From contig JBNRSN020000039.1 in NCBI GenBank assembly GCA_051313645.2, forward strand, positions 6,820,001 through 6,884,000: a stretch of DNA of 64,000 nucleotides, read 5' to 3'. The DNA comes from Centroscyllium fabricii (taxonomy: Eukaryota). A model generated the notes under the pieces. That model saw only the letters and a list, made by a program, of their open reading frames with translations, was not told the DNA's origin and ran no database searches. Both the position numbers and the translations under genes were made by a program. Of this stretch, positions 1 through 34,004 are shown in pieces (within the stretch, counting starts at the first letter, position 1; every line of letters starts with the position of its first letter).

Positions 1-1109
1 GTAACAATTCTCCTGTATGAAATTGCACATTGTCTGGGCGCGAATGCTCCTGTGCCAGTCTAAAGTGTCTCCAGTCTTCAGTTGTACATTAGCCTTGTCT
101 GCAATCGTCATGAGCACATCGACTCTTTCTCCACTCTGGGATTACTAACCAAACCCGGCACTTGTACTCTCTTCATCGAAGAAAGATCAGTGCGAGCGCA
201 AGTCAAGCTGTCTTCATCCTGGACCATGTTGACTGATATCTTCTGCATGGTTTATGTGCACGCACTAGTTCAGCTTTAGTAAAATTTGGCTCCACCTAAT
301 TTCTTAGCAATTAACCAATTCTGCTCAATTGCTAATAATTACTTTGCATACCGTCAGAACCTGCTCCTGACTTTTGCTCCTGGTTCTGTATATTTTTCCT
401 CCTGATTCGTCAGGATACACCTTCCTCTCGGCTGTTGTCCACATAACCCCCTCGTCATACACCGGCATCTGAGAAGACTCCTCTAAGCATAAACATAACG
501 TTGAATATTCCTATGTCCCCGTGACTCTGTCCACTGTGGATTCAAAGCACTCTGTGTTATTGCTGCCTCGAGCATGGATTCGAACCGTGACGACCACTCA
601 CCCATTCACACTTACTGTAGCTCTTACTCTCCTGTATTCTTAACAGTCCCACTTTTCTTTTTAGTATTCCTGCCTTTTGGTTTTGATGACATGTCTTCTC
701 TTATGATGGCCATTATCTAAATAGACTAGTTAATGGGATTATTCATCCTTCTGTGTTTAAAAAACGTTCATTTATCCTGCTTCCTTGTAGACCTCGGACT
801 CCTGGGGTATTTGTATTATTCCCTTCTCTTGGTTTATTTACTTACTAAATTCTCCTGTTTGTGGTTAGGAAACTTCCTTCACTCTTCATATTACTCACCC
901 TCGTCGATTTCATTATGGCCCCGCCCACCCCAAAGGTTAATCAACAGAATCGCAGGGAAATTTCTCAAACTAGATAGAAAATTGAACCCGCAGTGAGTGT
1001 TGCTCATTATTCTCCTATTTATCAGTAGAAATGATCCAATGCCCCCCCGTTCCCAAGTCAGATATCTTAATCCGAAAGCAATTTCCCTGTTTTTGTAAAT
1101 GCGGTTTCT

Positions 1110-1575
1110 AGATAAGAAAAAATAAACATATGTAGAAAGAAAGAATGAAAAAAGGAATAATTGAAAGAAAGAACGTTTAGAAAGGAATAAAAAAGAAAGA
1201 CAGAAAGAAACACAACAAGCAAGAATGTAAACACACAAGAAAGAAAAACATGAATTATAAAATAACGAATGAATGGAGGAAGGAAAATAAAAATGTACAG
1301 TTAGAAGGAAAGAAAGATGTAAGGCAGTGAGGAATTAAATCAGGGANNNNNNNNNNNNNNNNNNNNNNNNNNNNNNNNNNNNNNNNNNNNNNNNNNNNNN
1401 NNNNNNNNNNNNNNNNNNNNNNNNNNNNNNNNNNNNNNNNNNNNNNNNNNNNNNNNNNNNNNNNNNNNNNNNNNNNNNNNNNNNNNNNNNNNNNNNNNNN
1501 NNNNNNNNNNNNNNNNNNNNNNNNNNNNNNNNNNNNNNNNNNNNTAAGGCAGGAAGGGAAGAATGCAGGAAACAA
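1110..1575. repeat. GA-rich (GAAA/GGAA) low-complexity tract; homologous tracts at ~5060-5570, 7420-7870, 17440-17860, 20150-20530, 23220-23340, 28740-29115, 31810-31925
   Basis: Degenerate aaag/gaag runs that follow the conserved blocks. Confidence 0.9.
1347..1544. other. Assembly gap (N run)
   Basis: Run of n. Confidence 1.
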
Positions 1576-1610
1576 GAAAGGATCGGGCTGGAATCCTCTT
1601 CTGCCCCGTT

Positions 1611-2514: not shown

Positions 2515-3895
2515 ATAGACATTCTCCAGTCTGAAATTGTACATTGTCCTGGACTGAAATCATTATGTGCCCCTCTACACTATATCCAATCTAAAATTGT
2601 ACATTGGCCTGGGCTGCAATCATCCTGTGCCTATCTACAATGTATCAAGTGTTAACTTGTACATTGGCCTAGACTGGATTTCTCCTGTGTCCCTGTACAG
2701 TTTCTCCAGACTTAAAGTGTACATTGGCCTGGGCTGTAACTCTCCCGTGCCCCTCGACACTTGATCCAGTCTGAAATTGTACGTTATCCTGTGTTCGAAT
2801 CGTTCTGCGCCCCTTTCCACTTTCTCCAGTCAGTGATTGTGCATTACCCTGTGCAGAAATCGTCATGTACCTCACTGCGCTTTCTGCTGGCCAGCATTGT
2901 ATATTGGCATGGTCTGCAATCATGTAGTACAACACAGGACTTTCTCCAGGCTGAAATTGTACATGTGCCTGCGCTAGAATTATCTTATACCTCCCCGTGA
3001 TTTCTCCGGTCTGAAATTGTACATTTTACAGTGATGGAAGTCTCCACTGCCCATCAAAATTAGCTCTTGCCTGCAATCGGACGTTGCGCTGCGTTAGAAT
3101 CTTCCTGTGCCCCCCTGCACTTCCGCCAGGCTGAAATTGTACTTTGGACTGGGCTGGAGTCCTCCGAAGCAATTCTGCACTTTTCTCCAGTCTGAAATTG
3201 TACATTGCCTTGGGCTCGAATCCTCCCGTGTAGCTCTACACTTTCTCCAGTCTCAAATTGCACCTTGTACTCTCCTGTGCAGCTGTACAGTTGCTCGAGT
3301 CTGAAGTTGTAGATTGGCCTGGGCTGGAGTCCGCTTGAACATATCTGCAGTTGCTCCAGTCTAAAAGTGAACATTGTCCCGGCCTGGAATCCTGTGCAGC
3401 TCTACAGTTTTTCCCGTCTGATATTGTACATTGGCCTGGTCTTGATTCGTACTATCACCCACTTTACATACTGCAGCCTGGCGTAATGCATGGCCCTCAG
3501 CTGGAATTCCCCTTTAACCCTATAAAATTTCACATATCTGCCAGTATACATTGTCCTCGGCTGCATTCGTCATGTGCCCCTCTAATAGTTCTCCTGTATG
3601 AAATTGCACATTGGCTTGGGCGTGAAGCCTCCTGTACAGTTTGTCCAGACTGAGTTTGTAAATTGTCCTGGGCTGTGATCCGCATGTGCCCCTCTACGTT
3701 TTTGCAGACTGAAATTCTACATTTGCCTCGACTTCAAAAGTCCTATACCCCTCTAAACATACTGCCATCAGAAACTCTTCATTTCCCTGGGCTGGCATCC
3801 TCCTGTGCCGCTCTACAATATCTCCAGTCTGAAACTGTTCATTGGCCTAGGCTACAATCCCCCAGTGTCACTCTACTCTTTCAACAGTCTGTAAT
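2515..3895. repeat. 60-bp minisatellite array
   Basis: Diverged monomers of consensus ~ctccagtctgaaattgtacattggcctgggctggaatcctcctgtgcccctctacacttt. Confidence 0.93.
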
Positions 3896-4169
3896 CAGGG
3901 CATGGAAGACAGATCAGAGCGAGCGCATGTAAAGCTGTCTTCATCCTGGACTCTGTTGAATAAGATCCTCTGCATGGTTTCTGTGCACGCACTACTTCAG
4001 CTTCACATATATTTGGTTTCAACTAATTTGTTAATCATTAAACAATTCCGCTCAACTGCTAATCAATATTTTGTTTACCGTCAGAACCAGCCCTTGACTT
4101 TGATCCTGGTTCAGTTTAATTTTCCATCTGATTCGTCAGTTTCCTCCTTCCTCTCGGCTATTGTCCATC

Positions 4170-5570: not shown

Positions 5571-6500
5571 GACAGGCCTGGTGTCCTCCAGTGGTATTCG
5601 GAAATTACTCCAGTCTGGAATTGTATTTTGACCTGGGCTGGAATCTTCCTGTGCGACTCTAAACATTCTCCAGTCTGAAATTATACATTGACCTGGGCTA
5701 GAGTTCTCCTGTGGCCCTCAACATATTCTCCAGCCTGATATTGTACGTGGGACTGTGGGGAATTCCCCATGAGTCACTCTGGACTTGCTCCAGACAGACA
5801 TTGTGCATTTACCTGTGCTGGAATCATGCTGTGCCACTCTGGAATTCCCCTAGCCAGAAATTGCACATTTTCTGGTGACGGTAGCCTCCGCTGCCCCTCT
5901 ATACATTCTCTTGCCTGAAATTGTACATTGTCCTGTGCTGGATTCCTGCTTAACCCCTCTGCGCATTCTCCAGTCCGAAATTGTACTTTGTTCTGGGCTG
6001 GAATACTCGTATGCACCTCTACACGTTCGCCAGTCTGAATTTGTACAGTGCCACCGTATGGTGTCCTACTTTGCCCCTCTGTACTCACTGCAGTCTGAAT
6101 TTATCAAGTGTCGTCGCCGGAAATTCTCCGTTACCACTTTAAACATTCTCAGATCTGAAAACGTACACTCTCCTCGGATGGATTCGTCAGACTCCCCTTT
6201 AATAATTCTCCTGTGTGATATTTTAAATTGGCATGGGCTGGAGTCCTGATGTGCCGCTCTACAGTTTCTCCAGTCTCAAGTGTACCTTGGCGTGGCCTGG
6301 ATTTCTCCTGTGCTCCTCTACCCTTTTTCAGACTGACATTCTATATTGGCCTAATCTGAAATCCTGCCATGCCCCTCTAAAACTTCTCCATTGTGAAATT
6401 CCCCATTGGCCTGGGCTACCGCTCTATACAGTCTCCTGTCTGCAATTTTCCATTGGCCTTGTCTGTAATCTTCCTGTGCCCCTCTACTCTTTCTCCAGTC
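5571..6500. repeat. 60-bp minisatellite array
   Basis: Same monomer family. Confidence 0.93.
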
Positions 6501-6535
6501 TGGGATTATGAACCAGCCCCGTCGATTGTACTCAC

Positions 6536-6581
6536 TGCATCGAAGGCAGATCAGAGCGAGCGCAAGTAGAGCTGCCTTCAT
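6536..6581 (-). other. Putative signal-peptide (leader) exon, MKAALLALALICLRC + 1 nt, phase-1 donor GTGAGT
   Basis: The minus strand reads ATG AAG GCA GCT CTA CTT GCG CTC GCT CTG ATC TGC CTT CGA TGC A|GTGAGT. Homologous ATGs at 217, 3944, 14600, 15464, 19290, 22254, 27905 and 30841. Confidence 0.55.
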
Positions 6582-6635
6582 CCTGGACCAGTTGAATGAT
6601 ATATTCTGCAAGGTTTCTGTGCGTGCAGTAGCTCA

Positions 6636-6745
6636 GCTTTATTAATATTTGGCTGCATCGTATTTGTTAATCATTAAAAAATTCCGCTCAATTGCTAATC
6701 ATTAATTTGTTTACCGTCATTACTGACCTTGACTTTTACTCCTGG
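6636..6745 (-). promoter_or_regulatory. Putative hepatocyte-type promoter: TATA-like stretch, two HNF1-like sites, FOXA motif
   Basis: gttaatcattaaa 6666-6678, gctaatcattaat 6694-6706 and tgtttac 6708-6714. TATTAATAAAG lies on the minus strand ~60 bp upstream of the ATG. The layout is conserved across units. Confidence 0.5.
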
Positions 6746-7869: not shown

Positions 7870-10710
7870 ACCGTGCTGGAGTCCTTCTTTGCAGCTCTAT
7901 ACATTCTCCAGTATGAAATTAGACATTGTCCTGAGCTATAATCCTCCTGTACCCCTCTGCCCTTTTTCCAGTCTGAAATAGTACATTCTCCTGGGCTGAC
8001 ATCCTCTTGTGTCCCTCGACACATTCTCCTGCCGCAAATTATTCATGCTCCTGGGCTGCAATCTTCCCGTGTCCGTATACACCTTTTCCAGTCTGAAATT
8101 CTACATTTGCCTGAGCTGGACTTCTCTTTTCCACCTCTGCACATTCTCCAGTCAGAAATTGTGCATTGTTCGGGACTGGAATCGTCCTGTGCCGCTGTAG
8201 ACTTTCTCCAGTCTGGAATTGATCATAATCCAGTAGGCCCATCTACAAATTGCCGAGTATGAAATTATATATTGGCCTCAGCTGGAATCCTCATCGGCCC
8301 CTTTACATTTTCTCCCATCTTAAATTGTAGATGTTCTCTCCTGGGACACTCCTGTGCCCATCGACAATTTATCCAGCCTCAACTTGTCCATTGACTTGGG
8401 CTGGAATTATCCTGCGCCCCTCTTAATTTGCTGCAGTCCGAAATTGTACGTTGTCCTCGGCTGGAATCCTCCGGTGCCCCTTTACATTTTCCCCTGTCTT
8501 ACTTGTAAATTGGCCTCGGCTAGAATTTCCTGTGCACCTCTACATTTTCGCAATTCCGAAATTGTACAATGGCCTGGGCTGGCATCCTCTTGTGTCACTC
8601 TAGATTTTGTCCATAATGAAGTCGTACATTGGACTGAGCAACAATGTACTATGCCGCTCTAAACTTTCCCCAGCCTGACACTGTATATTGGCCAGTGCTG
8701 CAATTCACCCGAGCACATCTACAATATCTCCAATCTAAAATTGTGCACTGGCCTGGGCTGGAATCATCCTGTGTCCCGCTAAATTGTCTCCAGTCTCAAA
8801 TTGTACCGTGGCCTGAGCTGGAATACTCCTACGTCCCTCAGAAACTTCTCCCATCCGTAATTGTGCATTCGCCTGGGCTGGAAACCTCCTGTGCCCCATT
8901 TCAATTCCTCCATTCTCAAATTGTTTAATGGCCTGGGAGATAAACCTGTTCTGTGACTCTGGATTTGCTAAAGACTGAAATTGCACATTGTTCACTGCTG
9001 GAAACAATTTGATATTTGCTGGTATTTTATCCAGTCCGAAATTGAACATTTTCCGGTGTTGGAATATGCCACTGTCCCTCTATACTTTCTGCAGTCTGAA
9101 ATTATACATTGGTCTGGGATGGTATACTCCTGTAAACCTCGGCCCTTCCACCAGTCTGAATTTGTAATTTGGTATGTGCTGGAGTCCTCCTGTGCACCTC
9201 TAAACTTACTGCAGTCTGAAATTTACATTGCCCTAGACTGCAATGCTCCATTTCACTCTACATATTCTCCAGTCTGAAATTGTACATTGGCCTGTACGAA
9301 AATCGTCCTCTGCCACTCTGCACTTTTTCCAGTATGAAATTGTACATTGTCCTGTACTTTAATCGCCCTGTGTCCCTCTGCACTTTTTCCAGCATGGAAT
9401 TGAACATTGTCCTGTACAATATTCGTCCTGTGCCCCCATGCACTTTCTCCAGTCTGAAATTGTACATTGGCCTGGGCTGGAATTCTCCTGTGCTACTCTG
9501 AACCATCGCCAGGCTGAAATTGTACATTGGCCTGTGCTGAAATCCTCCTGAGCCCCTTTGTACTTTCTCCAGTTTGAAATGGTATATTTGCTTGGCCTAG
9601 AATTCTCTTGTGCCACTCTGTACTTTCTCCACTTTGAAATTGTATATTTGCTTCTCCTAGATTTCTCTTGTGCCACTCTGGATTTTCGCGAGACTGAAAT
9701 TATATTTTTTCCCCGGCTGGCAAACTCCTGTGCTGCTCAAAACATTGTCCAGTCTGAAATTGTACATTGGCCTGTTCTGGAATTCTCCTTTGGCACTTAA
9801 CTTGTTCTCCAGTCTGAAATTGTACATCGGCCAGTGCTGTAATAATCCCATGCGCCTCTACACTATCTCCAGTCTAAAGTTGTGCATTGCCTGAGCTGGA
9901 TTCATACTGTTCAACTTTACATTTTCTGCAGTCTCAAATTGTACATTTGCCTGGGCTGGAATCCTCCTGCGTTACTCTGAACATTCTCCCATTTGTAATT
10001 GTTCATTAGCCTGGGCTGGAATCCTCCTGTGCCCCACTTCAATTTCTCCATTATTAAATTGTATAATGGCCTGTGATGGAATAACTCTTCTGCCACTCTG
10101 TTTTTTCTAAAGACTGACATTGCTCATTGTCCTGTGCTGGAGCAATCTTGTGACTTTCTAGAATGTATCCAGACTTAAATTGTACATTTTCCGGTGATGG
10201 AATTCTCCGCTGCCCCCCTATAATTTCTACAGTCTGAAATTGTATATTGGTCTGTCCTGGAATCCTCCTGGACGTCACTAAACTATCACCATTCTGAAAT
10301 GGTACATTTGACTGTGCTGCAGGCATCCTGAGCCCCTCTCTACTTTCTCCACTCTAAAAGTGTATACTGGCTTTGGCTAAAATTCTCTTGTACCACTCTG
10401 GACTTTCTCCAGACTAAAATTTGACATTTTCCTTTGAAGGAGTCGTCCGCTGACCCTCTGTACCTTCTCTTTCCTCAGGTTGTATAATTTCCTGGTCTGG
10501 AAACCTCCTTGACACCTCTGCACTTGCTCCAGTTCTAAATTATACACTTTCCAGAGCTGGAATACTCATGTGTCCATCTAAACTGTCTCCAGCTTCAAAT
10601 TGTAAGTTGGCCTGGGCTGGAGCACTCCTGAGCCCCTCTACACTTACTGCAGTCTGAGCATGTACATAGGCCTAGGCTGAAATAATCCTATGCCTGTCGA
10701 CCCTATCTCC
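7870..10710. repeat. 60-bp minisatellite array
   Basis: Same monomer family, roughly 47 monomers by length. Confidence 0.93.
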
Positions 10711-10877
10711 ATTTTTTTTGCTGACATCTCCTCCGTTATAATGGCCATTCTCTCGCCATCCTGGTTAATGTAGTTATTCAACCTTCCGTGTTTCATCACA
10801 TTTCCTGCCTCCTGCTTCCAGGTAATCTTCGGCCTCCTGGAATCTTCATATTACTCATTTTTCTTAGTTTCTTGTTA

Positions 10878-11758
10878 TTCAATTCAATTCAATTCAATTC
10901 AAGTTTTATTGTTATTGCAGAGTACTAGTACAATACAACGAGACGAAGACTCGACACTCCCGAGAGTAGTGCAAACAAAACAAACAAACCACATAAATAA
11001 ATTGCATACAGTAAAGTTCATTATCAGGCGTGCAGGTGCCGGAGTTTCTTTTTAGAGTTCAGGAGGCTGACAGCCCTGGGGAAGAAGCTGTTCTGAAATC
11101 TAGTTGTGCGGGTGCAAACTGCTCTGTAGCGTCTCCCCGGAGGGCAGAGGGGCGAACAGACTGTGGCTGGGGTGTGTGGGGTCTTTTATAATGTTCATAG
11201 ACCTCCGTAAGCAGCGTTTGAGGTAGATGCTTTCCACTGACGGTAGCTGTGTACCGGTAATTCGTTGGGCAGTTTTGACTACCCGCTGCAGGTTTTTCCG
11301 GTCCGAGATAGTGCAATTACCATACCAGACAGTGATGTAGCTTGTCAGTATGCTTTCTATTGTGCAGCGGTAGAAGTTGGAGAGGATGCCGGATGACAGC
11401 CTGGCTTTCTTCAGCTTCCTAAGGAAGTACAGGCGCTGTTGGGCCTTCTTAACCAGAGAGGAGGTGTTTAATGACCAGGAGAGATCTTCCGAGATGTGGA
11501 CCCCGTGGAACTTGAAGCTGGACACCCTTTCCACCTCAGCCCCTTGGATGAAGATGGGGGTGTGTCTTCTGCTTCCAGTCGTCCGGAAGTCCACTATGAT
11601 CTCCTTCGTTTTCTTGGTGTTAAGTGCCAGGTTGTTGTCGGCACACCAACCGACAAGGTGCTGGATCTCATCCCTGTAGGCTGACTCGTCGTTGTTGGTG
11701 ATCTGGCCAACCACCGTGGTGTCATCCGCGAACTTGATGATCGTGTTGGAGCCATGGA
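10878..11758 (-). mobile_element. 5'-truncated Rex1/Babar retrotransposon, same family as 1611-2514
   Basis: ORF 11100-11765 (-): IIKFADDTTVVGQI...KTKEIIVDFR. (ttcaa)n tail at ~10878-10902; the 3' UTR closely matches the first copy. Confidence 0.92.
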
Positions 11759-12031
11759 TACTCAATTCTCCTGTCTGTGGTTATAAAACTTCCTTCATTT
11801 TACTTAATACTCAAACACTTCGTCTTCATTATGAACACGGCCCACCCCATAGGTTATTACACAGAATCACAGGGAAGTTACTCAAACAAAACGAAAATTG
11901 AACCCACCGTGCATGCTGCTCATTTTAGTCCTCTATGACAGTGCAACTAATCCCCTGTGCCGCCCCCCCCCCCCCCGTTCCAATTTCAGATATCCTAAGC
12001 AGAAAGCTAATTACCTGTTTTTGTAAAGCGG

Positions 12032-12579: not shown

Positions 12580-12597
12580 AATGAAGGAACAATGAAA

Positions 12598-14520: not shown

Positions 14521-14554
14521 AGGATTATTGACCAACCCCGGCGCTTGTACTCAC

Positions 14555-14600
14555 TTCTTCGAAGACAGATCAGTGTGAGCACAAGTAAAGCTGTCTTCAT
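14555..14600 (-). other. Putative leader exon copy MKTALLVLTLICLRR with intact GTGAGT donor
   Basis: Homolog of 6536-6581; open frame with a GT donor at 14554. Confidence 0.5.
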
Positions 14601-16160
14601 CGTGGATCCTGTTGAATGATACCCTCGGCATGGTTTCTGTGTACGCACTAGTTCAGCTTTAGTAATATGTGTCTGCACCTAATTTATTAACAATTAACCA
14701 ATTCTGCTCAATTGCTAATCATTACTTTGCTTACCGTCAGAACCTGCCCTTGAATTCTGCTCCTTGTTCTGTATATGTTTCCTACTTATTCGGCAGGATA
14801 CTGCATCCTCCCGGCTGTTGTCTATCTAACCCCCTGCGCATGCACACGTATCTGAGAAGACTCCTCTAAGCAAAACCTACAACGTTGAATATTCCTAGTC
14901 CCCGCGTCTCTGACCAGTGTGAAATCAGGGCATACTGTGTTATTGCTGCCTAGAGCATGGATTCGAACCGTGACTATTACTTCCTCCTCCGCCCTAATGT
15001 CGCTCTTACTCTGCTATATTCAAATGTGGAGGTACATTGTCCTCGGATGGATTCGTCATGCTCCAGTGTAATATTTCTCCTGTGTGAACTTGTACATTGG
15101 CATGGGCTGCAGTCCTGCTGTGACCCTCTACAATATCTCCAATCTGAAAGTGTACCTTGGCCTGGGCTGGAATTCTCATGTGCCCCTCTACTCTTTTTCA
15201 GACTGACATTCTATATTGGCCTCGTCTAAAATCCTCCCAAGCCCCTCTAAAACTTCTCCATTATCAAATTCTCCATTGGACTGGTCTAATATCCTGCTGT
15301 ACCACTCTGTAGTGTCTCCTGTCTGAAATTGTTCATTGGCCTTGTCTGTAATCCTCCTGGACCCCTCTAATATTTCTCCAGTCTGCGATTATGAAGCAGC
15401 CCCGTCGTTTGCACTCACTGCATCAAATGCAGATCAGAGCGAGCGAAAGTACAGCTGCATTCATCCTGGATCCAGTTTAATGATATCTTCTGCATGATTA
15501 TTGTACGCGCACTAGTTCAGCATTATTAATATTTGGCTGCACCTTATCTGTTAATCATTGAACAATTCTGCTCAATTGCTGATCATTAATTTGTTTATCG
15601 TCATTACTTGCCCTTGAATTTTACACAAGACTTTTACACAAGATTCTGTTATGTTTTCCTCCTGATTCGTCAGCTTACTCCTTCCTTCGGCTATTGTCCC
15701 TCGAAACACCTTTTCATACTCTGGTATCTGAGAAGACTCCTCTAAGTTTAACGTACAATGTTGAATATTCCTATGTCCATTTGACTCTGTCCAGTTTGGA
15801 ATCTTATCACTCGGTGTTAGTGCTGCCGAGACCAAGGATTCCTACCGTGACGACCACTGCCCCTCCACCCTGCTTGTAGCTCTCAATCTCATGTATTCTC
15901 AACATTACCCGTTTTCTTTTTAGTATTCCTGCCATTTGGTTTTGCTGTCATCTCTTCCCTTCTATTGGCTATTCCCTCGCTATCCTGGTTACTGTGATTA
16001 TTTATCCTTCTGTGTTTAAGCACATTTCCTTCCTCCTGTTTCCGTGTAGACCTCGGCCTCCTGGTTTCTTCGTATTATTACCTTTTCTCCATTTTTTGTT
16101 ATTACTCCATACTCCTGCCTGTGGTTATTGAAAATCCTTCATTATTCGTATTACTCATCC

Positions 16161-17860: not shown

Positions 17861-19210
17861 ATCGGGCTGGAGTCCTCCTTTTCAGCTCTACACATTCTCC
17901 AGTCTAAAATAATACATTGGCCTGGGCTGCAATCATCCGGTGCCCCTCTAAACATTCTCCAGTCTGAAATTGTACATTGTCCAGGGCTGCAATCATCCTG
18001 TGCCCCTCTGCACATTTTACAGTCTGAAATTGAACATTGGCCTGGGCTGCTGTCATCCTTTGCCCCTCTCAACATTCTCCAGTGTGAAATTGTACATAGT
18101 CCTTGGCTATAATCGTCCTGTGCCCCTCTGCACAGATTACAGTCTGAAATTGTATATTGTCCTGGTCTGACGTCATCTTGTGCCCCTCTAATCTTTCTCC
18201 AGTCTGACATTGTGCATGGTCCTGGGCTGGATTCTTCCCCTGACCCTCTAAACTTGCTCCAATGTAAAACTGTATATTGGCCTGGGCTAGAAACCTCTTG
18301 TGCTACTTTGGAATTTCTCCAGACTGAAATTGTAATTTTTTCTGTGCTGGAATCATCTTGTCCCACTATGGTATTTCACTTGCCCCAATGTGTACATTTT
18401 CCTCCATGGCACCTCTATAAATTCTCTTGCCTGAAATTGTACATTGGCCTGGGCTAGAATCCTCCTTAACTTCTCTGCACAGTCTCCAGTCTGAAAGTGT
18501 ACATATGCTGGACTGGAATAATCCTGTGCACCTCTACATTTTCTCCAGTCTGAAATCTAATCTTGACAAGAGCTGGAGTCGTCCTGAGCACCCTTCCATT
18601 ACGGCAGTATCAAATTATATATTGGCATTGGCTGTAATTCTCCTATGCCCCTCTGTCCCTATCTCCAGTCTGAAATTGTACTTTGTGCAGGGCTGGAATA
18701 CTCCTGTGGACCTCTACACGTTCTCCGGCCTGAAATCATACATTGTGACGATATGCAGTCCTACTGACCCCCTCTCTACTTACAGCAGTCTGAGGTTATA
18801 CATTGGCCTCGGCTCAAATTCTCCTTTACCCCTCTACACTTTCTCATATATTAAATTGTACATTGTTCTGGGCTGGATTCGCCATGCGGCCCTGTAACAG
18901 TTCTCCTGTCTGCAATTGTAAATTGGCCTGGGTTCGAATCTTCCTGTAACCCTCGACATTTTCTCCAGTCTGAAATTGTACATCGGATGGGCTCGATTCC
19001 ACCTGTACACCTCTACTGTTTCTCCATTATCAAATTGTACATTGGCTTCGCCTAGAATCTTTCTCTGTCCCTCTAAACATTCTCCATTTTGAACAGCTTC
19101 ATTTGACAGGGCTGGAAACGTGTTGTGCCCCTCCAAAACTTCTCGAGTCTGGAATTGTTAATTGGCCTTGTCTGGAATCATCCAGTGCCCCTCTACTCTT
19201 TCCCCAGTCT
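17861..19210. repeat. 60-bp minisatellite array
   Basis: Same monomer family. Confidence 0.92.
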
Positions 19211-19375
19211 GCGATTGTGAACCAGCCCCGTCGGGTGTACTCAGCAGATCGAAGACTGATCAGAGTGAGCGCAAGTGAAGGTCTCTTCATCCTGGATACA
19301 GTTGAATGATATCCTCTACATGGTTTCTGTGCGTGCACTGAATCAGCTTTAGCAATATGTGGCTGCACCCAATTT

Positions 19376-19388
19376 GTTAATCATTAAC
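19376..19388. promoter_or_regulatory. Perfect HNF1 consensus GTTAATCATTAAC (also at 27991-28003)
   Basis: Exact match to GTTAATNATTAAC, ~86 bp upstream of the leader ATG at 19290 (-). Confidence 0.55.
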
Positions 19389-21439
19389 CGATTCTCTCAT
19401 TTGCTAATCATGAGTTTGTTTACCATCAGAACCAGCCCTTGCCTTTTGTTCCTGTTTCTGTTTATTTTTTTCCACCTGATTTGTCAGGTTACTCCTTTCC
19501 TCTCGGCTATTGCCCATCAAACCACTTTCTCATACTGTGGTATCTGGGAAGTGTCCTCTAATCGTATCACACAAAGCTGAATATTCTCATGGCTCTGTGA
19601 CGCTGTCTATTGTGGAATCATAACACTCTGTATTATTGCTGGCCGAGTATTGGTACACTGGCGACCACTCCACCCTGCTTGAAGTTTTTACTATCTTGTA
19701 TTTTTAACATTCCCCCTTTTCTTTTTAGTATTCCTGCCTTTTCTCTTTGTGACATGTCTTCACTTATAATGGCCATTCCCAAGATATCATGGTTACTGGG
19801 ATTATTCAAATTTATGTAATTCAACACATTTCCTTCCTCCTGTTTCAGGGAAGTCTCGGCCTCCTGCGTTCTTAATATTATTCATTTATGTTGGTTTGTT
19901 ATTATTACTCAATTCTCCTGTCTGTAGCTATAAAACTTCCTTTATTCTTCTTTTTACTCATTCACGTCGTTTTCATTATGACGCCACCCACCCCGTAGTT
20001 TATTACACAGAATCACATGGAAATTATTCAAACGCGAAAGACAACTGAATCCACAATGAGTGTTGCTCATCATGCTCCTCCCTATCAGTAGAGCTGATCC
20101 AATGTGCCCCGAATTTCACATATTACATACACTAATCATAAGTTATATCCCTGTGTATAGTATGAATATAAGAAGCAATGAATGAAATAAAGAACATTTA
20201 GAAAGGAATCAAACCGAAAGACAGAAACAGAGAACAAGTTATAAAATAAAAAATGGAAGAAAGAAACATGAAACTAAGGAGCAAAGAAAGAACGTAGGAA
20301 GGAAACAAAGAAAAATGTAAAGAAAGAAAGCAAGATATAAAGAATAAGGCAGTGAGGAATGAAAGCAGGAAGGGATGTTCGAAGGAATAAAATAATACAG
20401 TAGGAATGTGAGAAGGCAAGAAATGAGGTAAGAATGAATAAAATAACGGAAGAAAGAAAGAAAGAGAGAAATAGAAGGAACGACGGAAATAAATCAGACA
20501 AGGAAGTAAAGAATGAATGAAACAAGAAAGGACAGGACTGGCGTCCTCCTGTGCACCCCTACACTTACTGCAGTCTGAAATTGTACATTGGCCTAGATTG
20601 GAATCCTGCGGTGGCCCTGTACAGATTCGCCAGCCTGAATTTGTAAGTTGGCTTTGGCTCGAGTCCTCCTGTGCAACGCTACACTTACTGCAGTCTGAAA
20701 TTACACATTGGTCTGCACTGGCATGCTACTGTGCCCATCTAGAACTTCTCCAGTACGAATTTGTACATTGACCTGAGCTGGAACTTTCCTTTCTCCAGTC
20801 TTAAATTGTAATGTGATTGTTCTTGACTACTCCTGTGCCCATCTACACTTGCTGCATTCTGAAACTGTACGCTGTCCAGGGCTGGAAAACCATTGCGCCC
20901 CTCTTCAATTTCTCCAGCCGAAGATTGTAAAGTGGCATCAGCTGGAATCCTCCTGTGCACCTCTACACTTTCTCAAATCTGAAATTCTATATTAGCCTGG
21001 GCTGGCAACCTATTGTTCCACTCTGGACATTCTCCAGACTGAAATTGTACATGTTCCGGTGGTGGAATACTCTGCTACCCCTCTGTACGTTCTCCTGTCT
21101 AAAATTGTACATTGGCCTGTGCTGAAGTCCTCCTGTGCACCTTTACAATCACTGCAGTCTGAAATTGTACATTGGCTTAGACTGTCATTCTACATTTCGC
21201 TCTAAATGATCTCTGGTCTGAAATTGTACATTGGCCTTAGCTATAATCATCCCGTGCCCCTCTGCACTTTCTCCAGTCTGAAATTCTACATTGTTCTGGG
21301 TTGGCATCCTCTTCCGCCCCTATACAATTTATCCAGTCCGAAATTGTACGTTGTCCTCAGCTGGAATACTCCTGTGCCACTCTACACTTACTCCAGTCAG
21401 CAATTCTACTTTGGCCTGGGCTGGAATACTCCTACATAC

Positions 21440-21835
21440 GAACATAACAAATAGCAGCAGAAGTAGCCCAATCGGCCCCTCGAGCCTGCTCCACCATTCA
21501 CAAGATTATCGCTCATCTTATCATAACCTGAAATCTACTTTCACTCTCCATCCCACCCGTACGCATGTGATCTCCCGGGAGAGGCGAAACGGCAGAAAAA
21601 TAAACGAATGGCAAATGTGGGAAAAAAAATCTGGGGAGATCATTTCCGACCCCTCTTGGCGATCGAAACTCGTCCAAAAGTTCACATGGCCGATCTAAAC
21701 CTAGCCTTAAATCCACTTTCCTGACGGCTCACCGTAATCCCTAATGCCCTTTACATCGCGAAAGCTGTCTCTGCTTGAAATACATTCAATTAGTAGTTTC
21801 CACAGCTGTCTGGGGCAGACAATTCCACAGACATG
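21440..21835 (-). mobile_element. Degenerate CR1-type 3' end fragment(s) (duplicate at ~30027-30422)
   Basis: gaacataacaaatagcagcagaagtagcccaatcggcccctcgagcctgctccaccattca resembles the reverse complement of the CR1/HE1 3' UTR. Confidence 0.6.
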
Positions 21836-21908
21836 CCAATTCAATTCAATTCAATTATTATTGTCATTGCAGAGTACAAGTACAATACAATGAGACGAAG
21901 TGTAGTGC
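21836..21908 (-). mobile_element. Extremely 5'-truncated Rex1/Babar 3' end (duplicate at ~30424-30495)
   Basis: caattcaattcaattcaattattattgtcattgcagagtac...gagacgaag matches the Rex1 tail at 10878-10950. Confidence 0.8.
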
Positions 21909-23341
21909 ACGCGCCCCTGTAACATTTCACGTATCTGCAATTATACATTGACCTGTGCTCGAATGCTCCTGTGCCCATCTACCCAATTTCAGACTGAGGT
22001 TCTGCATTGGTCTCGACTGGAATCATCCTATGTCCCTTTAACATTCTCCTTTCTGAAATTCTAAATTGGCCTGGGCTAGAATAATGCTTTGCCGCTCTAA
22101 ATTTTGTCCATTGTGAAAATGTTAATTGGCCTTGGCTGGAATCCTCCTCTGCCCCTCTACTCTTTCTGCAGTTTTAGATCATGAACCAGCACCGTCGGTT
22201 GTACTCAATGCATTGAAGACAGATCATAATGAGGGTAAGTACAGCTGCCTTCATCCTGGATCCAGTTGAATGATTCCTCTGCATGTTGTCTGTGCGCGCA
22301 CTAGCTCAGCTTTAGTTATATTTGCCTGCACCTCATTTTTTAATCATTAACCAATTCCGCTCAATTGCTAATCATTAGTTTATTTAAAGACATAACCTGC
22401 CCTTGACTTGTACTCATTTGTTCTGTTTATCATTTCTCCTGATTCGCCAGCTTACTCCTACCTCTCGGCTGTTGTCCATCTAAAACCCTTCTCACACTCC
22501 GGGATCTTAGAATAATCCATTATGGGTAACGCATAACATTGAATATTCCTATGTACCCGTGGCTCTGTCCAGTTTGGAATCATAACATGCCTTGTTAGAG
22601 CTGCCTAGAGCTTGGATTTGTACCGTGAAGACCACTCCCCCTCCACCCTGCTTGTAGCTCTTAAACTCATGTATTCTTAACATTCCCAATTTTCTTTTTA
22701 ATATTCCTGCCTTGTGGTTTTGCTGACATGTCTTCACTCATACTGTCCATTCCCTCGCTATCCTGGATCCTGGGATAATTCTTCCTTTTTGTGTTTCATC
22801 ACATGCCCTTTCTCGTGCTTGCGTGTAGATCTCGGGATCCAGGGTCCTTTGTATTATTACTTTATCTTGGTTTCTTGCTGTTATTCATTTCTCCTGTCTG
22901 TGGCTATATAACTTCCTTCATTCTTCTTATTGCTCACCCGCATCTTTTTCATTATGGCCCCTACCCAATCTGTAGGTTTTTACACAGAATCTCAGGGAAA
23001 TTAGAGGGAAGGCGCATGGAGCGTGCTGTGGTAGGCCCCAGGCCTCAGACCCGATGTTTGAAACTTGGACTTGAAATTACACAAAGGGGAAAGACAATTG
23101 AATCCACAGTGAGTGATGCTCATTATTCTCCCGTCTATCAATAGAACTGATGCCAAGCCCCCCACCCGCGTTCCCATATTTATTCTTCTGGTCAGAAATC
23201 TCATCGCACTTTTTGTAGAAGCTGTTTCGATATAAGATAGAAAAAGTATAAAGAAGAAATAAATGAAGGAAGGAAAGATTATAAGAAAGGGCATAAAAAG
23301 AATAAAAACGAAAGACAGAAAGAAAGAGAACAAGCAATAAT

Positions 23342-23976
23342 GGGCCAGAATTTCCTGAATAATGGGCCAGAATTTCCTGTGCTCCAGAGGAGATGCACAC
23401 TCACGAAGGGGCGTCCGAAATGACCCTTGGGTGTGCAGCACGGGGGATGCCCTCGAACGGGAATTTCCTGTGCTGATGGGCAAGGCCCGTCAGCATCCAA
23501 CGCATGAAGACCTTGCACTGACGATTTCCTGTCAGAACGGGTGAAAATGCGTGTGTCAGCAGGTGGGCAAGTCGCTCTGGAGTTGCACATCTGAAAAGCA
23601 GTCGTAGCTGTGTGCCTGTGGTGCGTGCAGAACGGGAAAAAGCACTCTCATAGCGTTAAAAGGTAAGTTATTTGTTGATGTGATTCACATTCCTCTCATT
23701 TACACTTCACACTACAGCCGACGGCAGACTTTGTTAGCAGTTAGTTTATTATACAGTGCACGCTGAATAGCCTGCTTCTCTGTCAGAAAGAGAAATACTT
23801 AAGAGACGGTTTGTTTACTGACTTCATTTTAAAATGTGAAACTCTCACCTCGATGGAAGGGCGAGCTCCCCCAGATTTGCCGTTGTTACATTTCTCAGCC
23901 GGGCTGGAGACGCTGGTGGCTTCCTTTAACTGGGTCTCACGTTTTGAAACAGTTTTGACTCCCTTGGTTTGGCTTC
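23342..23976. mobile_element. Possible non-autonomous DNA transposon (MITE-like), truncated in copy A and longer in copy B (~31929-32900)
   Basis: Begins gggccagaattt (locally duplicated as a 22-bp unit) and terminates the GA tract. Copy B has a degenerate ...gatcagagccc end near 32900. No coding signal. Confidence 0.35.
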
Positions 23977-24323
23977 AGGTGTCAGAGAGTTGCCATTTAG
24001 CTTAAACTCGGTAGAGGTCGGTTCGGCAAAGAACTTGACTCAGCAAGGTTCCCGGCGATTTGGAAAACTGTTAATGTAACGCCCTTAATTTAAGAAGGTA
24101 GTAGATAAAATGTTGTAAACTATAAATCAGTTAGCCTAACACCTGTGGCTGGTAAAATGTTGGAGTCCATTATTAAGGAAACTGTAGCAGGTCATTTGGA
24201 TAAACATAATTTAATAGGACAAAGTCAGCATGGCTTTACGAAGGGGAAGTCATGTTTCACAAATTTGCTCCAGTTCTTTGAAAATGTAAAATACATTTGG
24301 GAAACATGGTAACCAGTGGATGA

Positions 24324-25244
24324 TTCCATGGTTCCGGTTCTGGCGGACGGCCGCCATCGGGCGGCCGTCCCCTCCTCGTTGGGTTTGTTCGTCGTGTTCC
24401 ACCGCCGTTCGACCGTCGGCGGCGCCGGGTGAGAGCCGGTGGGATGCGGGGTGCAGTGGGGCCCCGGGACGCCGCTTCGGTTCGGCCTCGGTCCGGAGTT
24501 CGGACCTCCGGGGTGTCGGGCCTGCGGGCGCAGGAGCCTGTGTCGGGAGATGGAGCTCCGCAAAACCTGGGTCGGGAGCTCCGCAAAACCTGGGACGGGA
24601 GCTGGAGATCCGCAAAACCTGGGTCGGGAGCTGGAGATCCGCAAAACCTGGGTCGGGAGCTGGAGATCCGCAAAACCTGGGTCGGGAGCTGGAGATCCGC
24701 AAAACCTGGGTCGGGAGCTGGAGCTCCGTGAGCCTGTGTCGGGAGCTGGAGCTCCGTGAGCCTGTGTCGGGAGCTGGAGCTCCGGGGGCCTGTGTCGGGA
24801 GCTGGAGCTCCGGGGGCCTGTGTCGGGAGCTGGAGCTCCGGGAGCCTGTGTCGGGAGCTGGGGCTCCGTGGGCCTGTGTCGGGAGCTGGAGCTCCGTGAG
24901 CCTGTGTCGGGAGCTGGAGCTCCGGGGGCCTGCGCCCGGAGATCGGAGTTCCGTGGATTCGGGAGTCGGACTGAGAGCGGCCACGCTAGGAACAGTGGCA
25001 GAGCGAATTGACTGGGCGAGAGAGGACAATTTTACCAACGGTTGAGTGGCCAGAGCAGGAACGGGATACTCGATCTTGGCGCCGTAATTTGGCTGACGTC
25101 TTGCGGGCTCGTTCGCGCTGGGCAGCTTAAGTGTTGCGCGGTTGTTGTTGTTGCACGGTGTGTCGGGTAGCAGTAAGCATTTCGTTGTATGGTGTTTGTT
25201 CGCTGTACAATGACAAATAAATTGAACTTTGAACTTTGAACTTT
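24324..25244 (+). mobile_element. Non-autonomous retroposon (921 bp) with internal 28/29-bp GC-rich VNTR and Rex1-like 3' end
   Basis: Flanked by gatga (24319-24323 / 25245-25249). Ends caatgacaaataaa...(gaacttt)n. The empty site is seen in duplicate copy B near 34280. Confidence 0.85.
24535..24935. repeat. GC-rich minisatellite, 29-bp (gggtcgggagctggagatccgcaaaacct) and 28-bp (gtgtcgggagctggagctccgtgagcct) units
   Basis: Near-perfect tandem units read directly from the sequence. Confidence 0.95.
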
Positions 25245-26808: not shown

Positions 26809-29800
26809 TGGAGTGTAATAACAGGGTGTTCTTGCTGCAGTTGTACAAGCTAATGGCAAGACCACACCTAGAATACTGCGTACAGTTTTGGTCGACATTT
26901 TTGGGAAAATACATACTTGCATTTGAGGCACTGGAAATAAGGTTCACTGGATTAATTCCGGGGATGAGACGGTTGCTATATGAGGAGAGGGTGTGTAGAT
27001 TGGGCCTATACTCTTTGGAGTTCAGAAGAATGAGGGGCGAACATATTGAAACATATCAGAACGTAAGGGGGCTTGATCAGTGGATGCAGAGAGGATGTTT
27101 CCAGTCTGAAAGTGTACATATGCTGGACTGGAATACTCCTGTGCACCTCTACATTTTCTCCAGTCTGAAATCTAAACTTGACATGAGCTGGAGTCGTCCT
27201 GAGCACCTTTCCCTCACGGCAGTATCAAATTATATATTGGCATTGGCTGCAATTCTCCTATGCCCCTCTGTCCCTATCTCCAGTCTGAAATTGTACTTTG
27301 TGCAGGGCTGGAATACTCCTGTGGACCTCTACACGTTCTCCAGCCTGAAATCATACATTGTGACGATATGCAGTCCTACTGACCCCGTCTCTACTTACAG
27401 CAGTCTGAGGTTATACATTGGCCTCGGCTCAAATTTTCCTTTACCCCTCTACACATTCTCATATATTAAATTGTACATTGTTCTGGGCTGGATTCGCCAT
27501 GCGGCCCTGTAACATTTCTCCTGTCTGCAATTGTAAATTGGCATGGGTTCGAATCCTCCTGTAACCCTCGACAGTTTCTCCAGTCTGAAATTGTACATCG
27601 GATGGGCTCGATTCCACCTGTACCCCTCTACTGTTTCTCCATTATCAAATTGTACATTGGCTTCGCCTAGAATCTTCCTCTATCCCTCTAAACATTCTCC
27701 ATTCTGAACTGCTTCATTTGGCAGGGCTGGAAACGTGTTGTGCCCCTCCAAATATTCTCGAGTCTGAAATTGTTAATTGGCCTTGGCTGGAATCATCCAG
27801 TGCCCCTCTACTCTTTCCCCAGTCTGTGATTGTGAACCAGCCCCGTCGGTTGTACTCAACAGATCGAAGACTGATCAGAGTGAGCGCAAGTGAAGGTCTC
27901 TTCATCCTGGATACAGTTGAATGATATCCTCTACATGGTTTCTGTGCATGCACTGAATCAGCTTTAGCAATAAGTGGCTGCACCCAATTTGTTAATCATT
28001 AACCGATTCTCTCATTTGCTAATCATGAGTTTGTTTACAATCAGAACCAGCCCTTGACTTTTGTTCCTGGTTCTGTTTATTTGTTTCCACCTGATTTGTC
28101 AGGTTACTCCTTTCCTCTCGGCTGTGGTATCTGGGAAGTGTCCTCTAATCGTATCACACAAAGCTGAATATTCTCATGGCTCTGTGACGCTGTCCAGTGT
28201 GGAATCATAACACTCTGTATTATTGCTGGCCGAGTATTGGTACCCTGGCGACCACTCCACCCTGCTTGAAGTTCTTAATATCTTGTATTTTTAACATTCC
28301 CCCTTTTCTTTTTAGTATTCCTGCCTTTTCTTTTTGTGACATGTCTTCACTTATAATGGCCATTCCCAAGATATCATGGTTACTGGGATTATTCAAATTT
28401 ATGTAATTCAACACATTTCCTTCCTCCTGTTTCAGGGAAGACTCGGCCTCCTGCGTTCTTAATATTATTCATTTATGTTGGTTTGTTATTATTACTCAAT
28501 TCTCCTGTCAGTAGTTATAAAACTTCCTTTATTCTTCTTTTTACTCATTCACGTCGTTTTCATTATGACGCCACCCACCCCGTAGTTTATTACACAGAAT
28601 CATATGGAAATTATTCAAACGCGAAAGACAATTGAATCCACAATGAGTGTTGCTCATCATTCTCCTCCCCATCAGTAGAGCTGATTCAATGTGCCCCCAA
28701 TTTCACATATTACATACACTAATCATAAGTTATTTCCCTGTGTATAGTATGAATATAAGAAGCAATTAATGAAATAAAGAACATTTAGAAAGGAATCAAA
28801 CCGAAAGACAGAAACAGAGAACAAGTTATAAAATAAAAAATGGAAGAAAGAAACATGAAACTAAGGAGCAAAGAAAGAACGTAGGAAGGAAACAAAGAAA
28901 AATGTAAAGAAAGAAAGCAAGATATAAAGAATAAGGCAGTGAGGAATGAAAGCAGGAAGGGAGGTTCGAAGGAATAAAGGAATAAAGTAGGAATGCGAGA
29001 AGGCAAGAAATGAGGCAAGAATGAATAAAAGAACGGAAGAAAGAAAGAAAGAGAGAAATAGAAGGAACGACGGAAATAAATCAGACAAGGAAGTAAAGAA
29101 TGAATGAAACAAGAAAGGACAGGACTGGCGTCCTCCTGTGCACCCCTACACTTACTGCAGTATGAAATTGTACATTGGCCTAGATTGGAATCCTGCGGTG
29201 GCCCTGTACAGATTCGCCAGCCTGAATTTGTAAGTTGGCCTTGGCTCGAGTCCTCCTGTGCAACGCTACACTTACTGCAGTCTGAAATTACACATTGGTC
29301 TGCACTGGCATGCTACTGTGCCCATCTAGAACTTCTGCAGTATGAATTTGTACATTGACCTGAGCTGGAACTTTCCTTTCTCCAGTCTTAAATTGTAATG
29401 TGATTGTTCTTGACTACTCCTGTGCCCATCTACACTTGCTGCATTCTGAAACTGTACGCTGTCCAGGGCTGGAAAACCATTGCGCCCCTCTTCAATTTCT
29501 CCTGCCGAAGATTGTAAAGTGGCATCAGCTGGAATCCTCCTGTGCACCTCTACACTTTCTCAAATCTGAAATTCTATATTAGCCTGGGCTGGCAACCTAT
29601 TGTTCCACTCTGGACATTCTCCAGCCTGAAATTGTACATGTTCCGGTGGTGGAATACTCTGCTACACCTCTGTACGTTCTCCTGTCTAAAATTGTACATT
29701 GGCCTGTGCTGAAGTCCTCCTGTGCCCCTCTACAATCACTGCAGTCTGAAATTGTACATTGGCTTAGACTTTCATTCTACATTTCGCTCTAAATGATCTC

Positions 29801-32800
29801 TGGTCTGAAATTGTACATTGGCCTTAGCTATAATCATCCCGTGCCCCTCTGCACTTTCTCCAGTCTGAAATTCTACATTGTTCTGGGTTGGCATCCTCTT
29901 CCGCCCCTATACAATTTATCCAGTCCGAAATTGTACGTTGTCCTCAGCTGGAATACTCCTGTGCCACTCTACACTTACTCCAGTCAGCAATTCTACTTTG
30001 GCCTGGGCTGGAATACTCCTACATACGAACATAACAAATAGCAGCAGAAGTAGCCCAATCGGCCCCTCGAGCCTGCTCCACCATTCACAAGATGATCGCT
30101 CATCTTATCATAACCTGAAATCTACTTTCACTCTCCATCCCACCCGTATGCATGTGATCTCCCGGGAGAGGCGAAACGGCAGAAAAATAAACGAATGGCA
30201 AATGTGGGAAAAAAAATCTGGGGAGATCATTTCCGACCCCTCTTGGCAATCGAAACTCGTCCAGAAGTTCACATGGCCGATCTAAACCTAGCCTTAAATC
30301 CACTTTCCTGACGGCTCACCGTAATCCCTAATGCCCTTTACATCTCGAAAGCTGTCTCTGCTTGAAATACATTCAATTAGTAGTTTCCACAGCTGTCTGG
30401 GGCAGACAATTCCACAGACATGCCAATTCAATTCAATTCAATTATTATTGTCATTGCAGAGTACAAGTACAATAAAATGAGACGAAGTGTAGTGCACGCG
30501 CCCCTGTAACATTTCACGTATCTGCAATTATACATTGACCTGTGCTCGAATGCTCCTGTGCCCATCTACCCAATTTCAGACTGAGGTTCTGCATTGGTCT
30601 CGACTGGAATCATCCTATGTCCCTTTAACATTCTCCTTTCTGAAATTCTAAATTGGCCTGGGCTAGAATAATGCTTTGCCGCTCTAAATTTTGTCCATTG
30701 TGAAATTGTTAATTGGCCTTGGCTGGAATCCTCCTCTGCCCCTCTACTCTTTCTGCAGTTTTAGATCATGAAACAGCACCGTCGGTTGTACTCAATGCAT
30801 TGAAGACAGATCATAATGAGGGTAAGTACAGCTGCCTTCATCCTGGATCCAGTTGAATGATTCCTCTGCATGTTGTCTGTGCGCGCACTAGCTCAGCTTT
30901 AGTGATATTTGGCTGCACCTCATTTTTTAATCATTAACCAATTCCGCTCAATTGCTAATCATTAGTTTATTTAAAGACATAACCTGCCCTTGACTTGTAC
31001 TCATTTGTTCTGTTTATCATTTCTCCTGATTCGCCAGCTTAATCCTACCTCTCGGCTGTTGTCCATCTAAAACCCTTCTCACACTCCGGGATCTTAGAAT
31101 AATCCATTATGGGTAACGCATAACGTTGAATATTCCTATGTACCCGTGGCTCTGTCCAGTTTGGAATCATAACATGCCTTGTTAGAGCTGCCTAGAGCTT
31201 GGATTTGTACCGTGAAGACCACTCCCCCTCCACCCTGCTTGTAGCTCTTATACTCATGTATTCTTAACATTCCCGCATTTCTTTTTAATATTCCTGCCTT
31301 GTGGTTTTGCTGACATGTCTTCACTCATACTGTCCATTCCCTCGCTATCCTGGCTCCTGGGATAATTCTTCCTTTTTGTGTTTCAACACATGCCCTTTCT
31401 CGTACTTGCGTGTAGATCTCGGGATCCAGGGTCCTTCGTATTATTACTTTATCTTGGTTTCTTGCTGTTATTCATTTCTCCTGTCTGTGGCTATATAACT
31501 TCCTTCATTCTTCTTATTGCTCACCCGCATCTTTTTCATTATGGCCCCTACCCAATCTGTAGGTTTTTACACAGAATCTCAGGGAAATTAGAGGGAAGGC
31601 GCATGGAGCGGGCTGTGGTAGGCCCCAGGCCTCAGCCCCGATGTTTGAAACTTGGACTTGAAATTACACAAAGGGGAAAGACAATTGAATCCACAGTGAG
31701 TGATGCTCATTATTCTCCCGTCTATCAATAGAACTGATGCCAAGCCCCCCACCCGCGTTCCCATATATATTCTCCTGGTCAGAAATCTCATCGCTCTTTT
31801 TGTAGAAGCTGTTTGGATATAAGATAGAAAAAGTATAAAGAAGAAATAAATGAAGGAAGGAAAGATTATAAGAAAGGGTATAAAAAGAATAAGAACGAAA
31901 GACAGAAAGAAAGAGAACAAGCAATAATGGGCCAGAATTTCCTGAATAATGGGCCAGAATTTCCTGTGCTCCAGAGGAGATGCACACTCACGAAGGGGCG
32001 TCCGAAATGACACGTGGGTGTGCAGCACGGGGGATGCCCTCGAACGGGAATTTACTGTGCTGATGGGCAAGGCCCGACAGCATCCAACGCATGAAGACCT
32101 TACACTGACGATTTCCTGTCAGAACGGGTGAAAATGCGTGTGTCAGCAGGTGGGCAAGTCGCTCTGGAGTTGCACATCTGAAAAGCAGTCGTAGCTGTGT
32201 GCCTGTGGTGCGTGCAGAACGGGAAAAAGCACTCTCATAGCGTGAAAAGGTAAGTTATTTGTTGATGTGATTCACATTCCTCTCATTTACACTTCACACT
32301 ACAGCCGACGGCAGACTTTGTTAGCAGTTAGTTTATTATACAGTGCACGCTGAATAGCCTGCTTCTCTGTCAGAAAGAGAAATACTTAAGAGACGGTTTG
32401 TTTACTGACTTCATTTTAAAATGTGAAACTCTCACCTGGATGGAAGGGCGAGCTCCCCCAGATTTGCCGTTGTTACATTTCTCAGCCGGGCTGGAGACGC
32501 GGGTGGCTTCCTTTAACTGGGTCTCACGTTTTGAAACAGTTTTGCCTCCCTTGGTTTGGCTTCATGTCGGGCAGGACGGGACTGGATCCAGCCTGCAGCG
32601 GTGCCCCGGAGGGAGACAACGGTCAGCGCTTTTGAGCAGCTTTCACAAGGGCGCGACCAGATCGGAGTTTGCCCACACACAGCCTGGTAACTGTTGGCTG
32701 GATCAGGGTTGCTGCAGATAACTCTGTAGGTTTCAGCCTTGAGAAACTGCGAGCCCAGCACAGACTGTTTAACATTCAGCCTCACAAGGCTTCGACAGGA

Positions 32801-33990: not shown

Positions 33991-34004
33991 AGAACTTGAC
34001 TCAG

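Follow-up and report, generated by a model that had tools for sequence, protein, structure and literature searches.

Genes of the Ly6/uPAR family typically consist of three exons, of which exon 1 encodes the signal peptide, and the encoded domain starts with LxCxxC and ends with CC-x4-CN, according to passages of PMC4839075. The salamander plethodontid modulating factor (PMF), a three-exon three-finger gene, has about 90% of its signal peptide in exon 1 and combines very fast coding evolution with adjacent non-coding sequence that is ~98% identical (10.1101/2022.01.04.475003, in part). In viper three-finger toxin genes, which have three exons and two introns, exons II and III diverge while the introns and cysteines stay (sections of PMC2474615), and at UGT1 and GCNT2 tandem first exons, some of them dead, precede shared exons (parts of PMC1885805). 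Here we analyse a stretch of 64,000 nucleotides from Centroscyllium fabricii (G000:C922:6820001-6884000, hereafter the window) together with its flanks. It carries on the minus strand a tandem array of short exons with their upstream regions, here called cassettes and named by the position of their ATG. By cysteines, motifs and exon layout the predicted gene is a Ly6/uPAR member, and it is only in architecture like a variable-first-exon cluster. Our preferred reading, to which we give roughly three chances in four, is that the array is the duplicated 5' end of a three-exon Ly6/uPAR gene, with a single surviving cassette acting as a relay rather than a maintained bank.

An earlier, sequence-only reading of the window had taken the array for an amplified 5' end belonging to a secreted-protein gene whose further exons would lie to the left, and inspection of that flank revealed two exons on the same (minus) strand, about 20.1 kb before base 1. 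Exon 2 (C922:6799733-6799855, 123 nt) has an AG acceptor, a GTAAGT donor, phase 1 at both ends and five cysteines, and opens with the end of the predicted signal peptide followed by LKC. The coding part of exon 3 (C922:6798946-6799061) contributes five more cysteines and ends with CC-x4-CN and a stop at 6798946. The contig carries three copies of the locus (A, that of the window, plus B and C), and all ten cysteines, from the LxCxxC start to the CC-x4-CN end, occupy the same places in the three copies. The stop falls 5-6 residues past CN at each of them, and there is no hydrophobic C-terminal signal for a glycosylphosphatidylinositol (GPI) anchor. Splice sites are canonical AG/GT and phase 1 throughout, giving a genomic model of three exons with consistent phases, the leader in exon 1 and the mature domain in exons 2-3. 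The predicted gene is very probably a member of the Ly6/uPAR (three-finger) family, and its product is predicted to be secreted.

Homologs were sought with a profile of six exon-2 copies against 1.84 billion proteins, which gave 10 matches at E 0.001. Eight of the 10 were looked up, with two long many-repeat proteins set aside; six of the eight, automatically named, come from ray-finned fishes and two are unnamed. The matches from bichir, reedfish, sturgeon, arowana and bonefish (XP_039620971.1, XP_028672808.1, KAK1151930.1, MGH0174716.1, XP_029113326.1 and KAG9356032.1), called 'CD59 glycoprotein-like' or 'UPAR/Ly6 domain' proteins, are the closest found. They have the same cysteine spacing and CN end, with a comparable leader and a comparable proline-rich stretch at the end of exon 2, their names being automatic and the comparison one of proteins alone. 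Complete homologs have ~92 residues from the likely start and terminate at CN. Exon 3 is identical to the sturgeon homolog at 18 of 34 residues (E 7e-9), and the bichir, sturgeon and arowana homologs have basic-hydrophobic leaders starting ~19 residues before LKC/LRC, in the same register as the cassettes. Cassette 6581 itself shows 67% identity to the bichir protein over 15 residues, the last four aligned across a gap. When four full-length homologs were compared with Pfam, three passed Toxin_TOLIP and none passed CD59 (28-31 bits vs 33.9). True CD59 is GPI-anchored, and the locus, with no GPI tail and homologs under the CD59 cut-off, is unlike it. Other searches added little: the top Atlas matches were LU clusters at 0.86 (lead level), a word-indexed protein search with the exon-2 alignment returned 12 candidates, none reaching E 0.01, and a PDB search with exon 2 gave five matches, weak and unrelated. 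A PF00021 search of the own genome, too insensitive for split exons, found three weak matches elsewhere and none at the locus. A uPAR/Ly6 fragment is listed in a table on shark skin mucus in part of PMC10707392.

On the minus strand, a unit of the array runs from a TTTC microsatellite through a ~1.1-kb block to an ATG exon with 46 coding nt, a donor and a 60-bp minisatellite array, and the cassettes align across the common upstream block. All nine ATGs reported earlier are present with the peptides described, including the stops in 217 and 15464, and in 6581, 14600 and 15464 the sequence GTGAGT comes exactly 46 nt behind the ATG; the donor is broken in the other six, which have GA, CT or TT at its position. 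That a cassette is exon 1 of the gene with exons 2-3 is a strong inference, because the phases fit (phase-1 donor to phase-1 acceptor), the homolog leaders match and a scan of the upstream DNA gave no comparable rival leader. The predicted join to exon 2 sets an A-x-A-like cleavage site directly ahead of LKC, and the predicted leader has a basic start, a hydrophobic core (9-residue mean 3.3) and small residues before LKC. When 83-90 kb ahead of exon 2 were scanned at each locus for hydrophobic phase-1 leader exons, A yielded 5 candidates and B and C 4 each. In A (84,145 nt) the two best candidates, and the only ones with a GTGAGT donor, were cassettes 6581 and 14600; at all three loci the candidates outside the family have a weak donor, GTAATA, and in A they sit within retroelement sequence. 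The predicted intron 1 would measure 26,680 nt from cassette 6581 and 34,699 nt from 14600. A separate Ly6-like gene (C1488:187695878-187695976) has an intact leader exon of 49 nt, likewise phase 1, that lies 967 nt before its exon 2, a matching layout that supports the leader-exon model for the array gene; its exon 3 was not found in the locus sequence examined.

The cassettes, all on the minus strand, differ greatly in state. Within the window only 6581 (6530..6581, 46 coding nt, GTGAGT at 6535) and 14600 (14549..14600, GTGAGT at 14554) combine ATG, open frame and donor, and the other seven of the nine are broken. Cassette 217 (172..217) is dead, with two stops and a lost donor, alike in A, B and C, and 3944 (3899..3944) has an open frame with the donor lost in A and GTGATT present in B and C. 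Three more dead cassettes lie at 15419..15464 (stop at codon 14, donor retained), 19245..19290 (donor lost, hydrophobic core weaker, perfect HNF1-like site at 19376-19388) and 22209..22254 (donor lost). Dead cassettes 27905 and 30841 sit in a block (27097..32567) that repeats 18482-23980 at 97.5% identity over 5.5 kb and copies 19290 and 22254, so the nine copies, though all real, make up seven independent lineages. The catalogue over the three loci holds 25 cassettes, nine in A and eight each in B and C; ATG, open frame and GT donor occur together in two of those in A, three of those in B and three of those in C. Cassettes 6581 and 14600 have stayed intact at every locus, 3944 at two. The earlier count of nine units holds for those with a cassette, and two more have lost promoter and exon 1 by deletion. 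The tenth (7876..12031) consists of a 60-bp array (7876-10694) and upstream block fragments from 10712 to 12031. The eleventh, the proximal unit left of the window (C922:6801096-6818750), retains the TTTC microsatellite, the block and a 60-bp array and has taken up retroelement insertions; its deletion junction is identical to that of the tenth.

One 60-bp minisatellite array stands behind each donor, between 2519 and 30760 (for example 2519-3895, 5608-6500, 12598-14520, 17864-19200 and 20535-21433). On the gene model these arrays are non-coding sequence of intron 1, and 'macrosatellite', the term of the first description, suits the locus less well than tandem partial gene duplication with a minisatellite in intron 1. 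The duplicated unit likely comprised promoter, exon 1 and the start of intron 1, exons 2-3 not being copied; no second exon was seen within a unit in the alignment of microsatellite and block. A hydrophobic plus-strand frame in the upstream block was rejected, being stop-ridden in all eight copies examined.

Cassette 6581 is preceded by a promoter-like block (6582..6710) with a TATA-like AT stretch ~60-70 nt before the ATG and two palindromes, at 6666-6678 and ~6694-6706, that resemble what we take to be the HNF1 consensus. Palindromes of this type ~86-98 nt before the ATG occur six times in the window against 0.16 expected, all derived from one ancestral site. Cassette 6581 is most likely the live one, otherwise 14600. 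It is preferred for being the nearest cassette intact at all loci, for its two HNF1-like sites and its strongly hydrophobic leader (9-residue mean 3.29; 3.28 in 14600), and for being intact in four of four public runs, where its exon and donor are covered without listed differences.

The three copies of the locus lie at 5.86-5.92 (C), 6.37-6.43 (B) and 6.80-6.85 Mb (A), with spacings of 431 and 507 kb, and B and C are 99.2% identical over 93 kb. Cassettes are 20-25% apart in an almost star-like tree, 3944 being farther through an insertion. Closer pairs, at 13-19%, are 6581/15464, 217/14600, 3944/B-6409810 and the two deletion units, a pattern consistent with a block of four units having been doubled afterwards. 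Because orthologous cassettes of A, B and C differ by only 0-3%, the array predates the three loci. At all three loci the proximal unit lacks promoter and exon 1 through one and the same deletion, and cassette 217 is dead, so selection on exons 2-3 would have acted when only upstream cassettes could give a leader.

Exons 2-3 show no stop, frameshift, splice-site or cysteine loss at three of three loci, and their divergence far exceeds that of the neighbouring DNA. Non-coding sequence differs by 2.3% (A-B), 2.5% (A-C) and 0.6% (B-C), and intron 2 has 6, 6 and 2 differences of 671 nt, respectively, a proportion p of 0.003-0.009. In exons 2-3 the proportion of replacement differences (pN) is 0.16-0.27 and that of silent differences (pS) 0-0.09 in five of six comparisons, exon 2 of B and C being the exception; exon against intron gives p <= 1e-10 in five of six tests, and pooled pN exceeds pS with p 0.003 (A-B) and 0.010 (A-C, Fisher). 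Among 77 codons compared over the three loci, 35 have amino-acid-changing differences and 2 silent ones only, with all ten cysteines fixed. Changes are concentrated in the first loop and throughout exon 3, mostly on the B/C side when the paralog on C1045 serves as outgroup. Between B and C, exon 3 differs at 15 of 114 nt (against the 2 of 671 in intron 2, p 1e-11), indicating very recent selection. The public runs, which come from one study and no more than two samples, may be those that the assembly itself was built from. They yield three exon-3 contigs with 0-1, 19 and 25 differences in X1 and X2 and one contig for intron 2, and three variants side by side show that they are not assembly errors. 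By these comparisons exons 2-3 change approximately 10 to 30 times faster than the DNA around, and the gene is likely under positive selection. An upstream cassette is likely used, because the exon divergence postdates the loss of the proximal promoter, and we are fairly confident that the gene is alive and driven through a cassette of the array.

Several points weigh against parts of this interpretation. Each exon by itself scores under the Pfam cut-off (for exon 2 alone, UPAR_LY6 gives E 6e-4 and 20.6 bits, below the curated 24.8), and none of the eight of 10 profile matches looked up is from a cartilaginous fish. The splice from exon 1 to exon 2 is a prediction from genomic sequence alone, and conservation does not clearly set cassette 6581 apart from dead ones (3 exon differences against their 2-8). 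The B and C copies could be two alleles instead of separate loci; their exon 2 is near-identical (2 of 120 nt, p 0.11 vs intron), and in their exon 3, judged by its own synonymous sites, pN does not significantly exceed pS (p 0.18). The suggested tissue depends only on the HNF1-like motif.

The alternatives differ mainly in what they make of the array. The sequence-only reading had offered either a pseudogene array or a bank of alternative promoters, and neither alone fits: most of the array has decayed (two of nine intact), and because the gene behind it is probably alive, one cassette or more should still be used. It could nevertheless be that two or three intact ones are kept for different tissues or for dose ahead of common exons, and the survival of 6581 and 14600 at three loci and of 3944 at two speaks for such a bank, as does the ATG, the only invariant element over nine independent lineages (0 of 27 positions changed against ~11% nearby), followed by the proximal HNF1-like site as the least-changed block (12 of 144). 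ATG conservation, however, partly reflects how the copies were found. The seven broken cassettes, and an estimate that neutral decay at 11% per site would spare about two or three of nine, argue against maintenance. In exon 1, moreover, 34 of 270 replacement sites (pN 0.126) and 8 of 108 silent sites (pS 0.074) differ from the column majority, so that pN is not below pS, and untranslated region, promoter motifs and donor differ by 8-15% among these lineages. Judged from these counts the cassette exons are without a signal of purifying selection, and we regard the bank as unlikely. We think it less likely still that the whole locus is now a pseudogene whose exons 2-3 diverged while alive, or were overwritten from paralogs, with no cassette in use. 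A first intron of 27-35 kb full of dead donors and retroelements would make an awkward gene, and a related locus on C1045 with four exon-2 copies, one exon 3 and no leader found shows that the family leaves wrecks; yet exons 2-3 are undamaged at all three loci and the B-C contrast in exon 3 points to very recent selection.

Two further explanations seem scarcely credible. Reading through from the ATG past the donor would give a secreted protein of 20-residue cysteine/tryptophan repeats, and the ATG is indeed in register with the array frame D-W...C, with a 196-codon open stretch at 13409-13996. Against this, that frame has a pN/pS of 0.84, the other two 1.23 and 1.06 (153 of 180 monomers, the 27 of the recent duplicate being left out), 2.7% of codons are stops, every copy has stops and frameshifts, and the array protein has no homolog among seven candidates and no Pfam family match. 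The block might also belong to a transposon, as its non-coding portion, or be a satellite in which a hydrophobic frame arose by chance; the region is rich in retroelements. All 31 matches of the upstream block in the 7.2-Gb genome, and the 150 listed of 178 matches to the array translation, nevertheless fall in clusters A, B and C on this one contig, and the downstream exons and homolog leaders refute the idea.

Under the relay reading, a burst of unequal crossovers would have multiplied the 5' end, leaving the copies now 20-25% apart, and a four-unit block would subsequently have doubled (13-19%). The unit adjoining exon 2 would have lost its own promoter and exon 1, an upstream copy taking over while the remaining cassettes decayed neutrally. 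Later, copying of the whole locus would have produced two or three loci, with rapid divergence of the exons for the mature protein. The surviving cassette would splice past the dead copies to exons 2-3, over an intron of 27-35 kb, yielding a predicted secreted three-finger protein, under likely strong positive selection, whose finger loops may bind a fast-changing partner. A microbial or parasite target is the leading candidate for that partner, at somewhat under even odds; a reproductive partner is possible, with a lower chance, and a target of a skin or spine secretion improbable, the remainder being left to something else. The HNF1-like sites would point to liver, gut or kidney/genital-duct epithelium, and we tentatively see a secreted binding protein of an HNF1-driven epithelium, host defence being somewhat likelier than reproduction. 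An inverted variable-first-exon locus, in which several live promoter-leader cassettes serve one hypervariable three-finger exon set of an undescribed, positively selected secreted family of cartilaginous fishes, is a doubtful though not far-fetched extension. If true, it would allow more dose or wider tissue expression without multiplying the mature protein, and would parallel, in fishes, the evolution of PMF in salamanders or of three-finger genes in snakes.

Set beside the described systems, the locus resembles the secreted single-domain genes of the SLURP1 and PATE type, as far as these are covered in parts of PMC4839075, with three coding exons, an exon-1 leader, ten cysteines, LxCxxC, CC-x4-CN and no GPI anchor; here, in contrast, exon 1 and the promoter region are repeated ~11 times ahead of one exon 2-3 pair. 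PMF differs in being an eight-cysteine pheromone with many whole isoforms, whereas the ten-cysteine product described here is known from sequence alone. Matches to snake three-finger toxins are weak only (a single exon scores 13.7 bits against a cut-off of 25.3, E 0.075, with the cobra-type profile; PDB E at least 0.036 over the C-terminal motif), and those toxins multiply by whole-gene duplication, the locus by duplication of the 5' end. With UGT1, GCNT2 and the protocadherins it shares tandem first exons with their own upstream regions, birth-and-death of cassettes and common downstream exons. Unlike in UGT1 and the protocadherins, the variable exon encodes only a leader that would be cleaved off and is mostly dead, and the shared exons are hypervariable. 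No description of this locus or layout was found in the open-access literature, supplements aside, nor any such fast-evolving three-finger case in a shark or ray.

Fast exons in which every cysteine is kept are the signature of three-finger proteins in arms races, such as venoms and pheromones, and finding the partner of the protein would point to an unknown immune or reproductive interaction. The gene has apparently lost its own promoter and first exon and lives on a duplicate, which would make it a neat natural example of a promoter relay following partial duplication. Gene-prediction programs would probably overlook it or model it wrongly, with exon 1 in a repeat array 27-35 kb from exon 2.

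The paralogous locus at C1045:1366900-1497000 has four copies of upstream block and exon 2 ahead of one exon 3, and no 60-bp array. Three of its exon-2 copies are without the third cysteine and the fourth without the acceptor. No leader exon was found in 175 kb upstream of these copies and no HNF1-like site in 200 kb. The family seems prone to partial tandem duplication. Young long satellite arrays lie on both sides of the C1045 locus (1350001-1358000 and 1514000-1550000).

In the window, the segment 23976-27103, between the recent duplicate blocks, is repeated at 97-98% at 33934-36112 and contains a 28-bp GC-rich tandem repeat (24575-24932). A single-exon rhodopsin-type G-protein-coupled receptor (GPCR; Pfam 7tm_1), frameshifted, lies at 39970-40879 on the minus strand. 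A relative with an open frame is present at C922:6782472-6783446, and more of them stand beside the other loci and the C1045 paralog; by resemblance they may belong with the GPR139-like expansion of cartilaginous fishes. The right part of the window holds four broken retroelements, recognised by their open frames, whose probable classes are as follows: a near full-length CR1-like long interspersed nuclear element (LINE; 46594-50620, plus strand), a long terminal repeat (LTR)-type element (51648-55090, plus), a second LINE (56239-59901, minus) and a second LTR-type element (61410-63859, minus).

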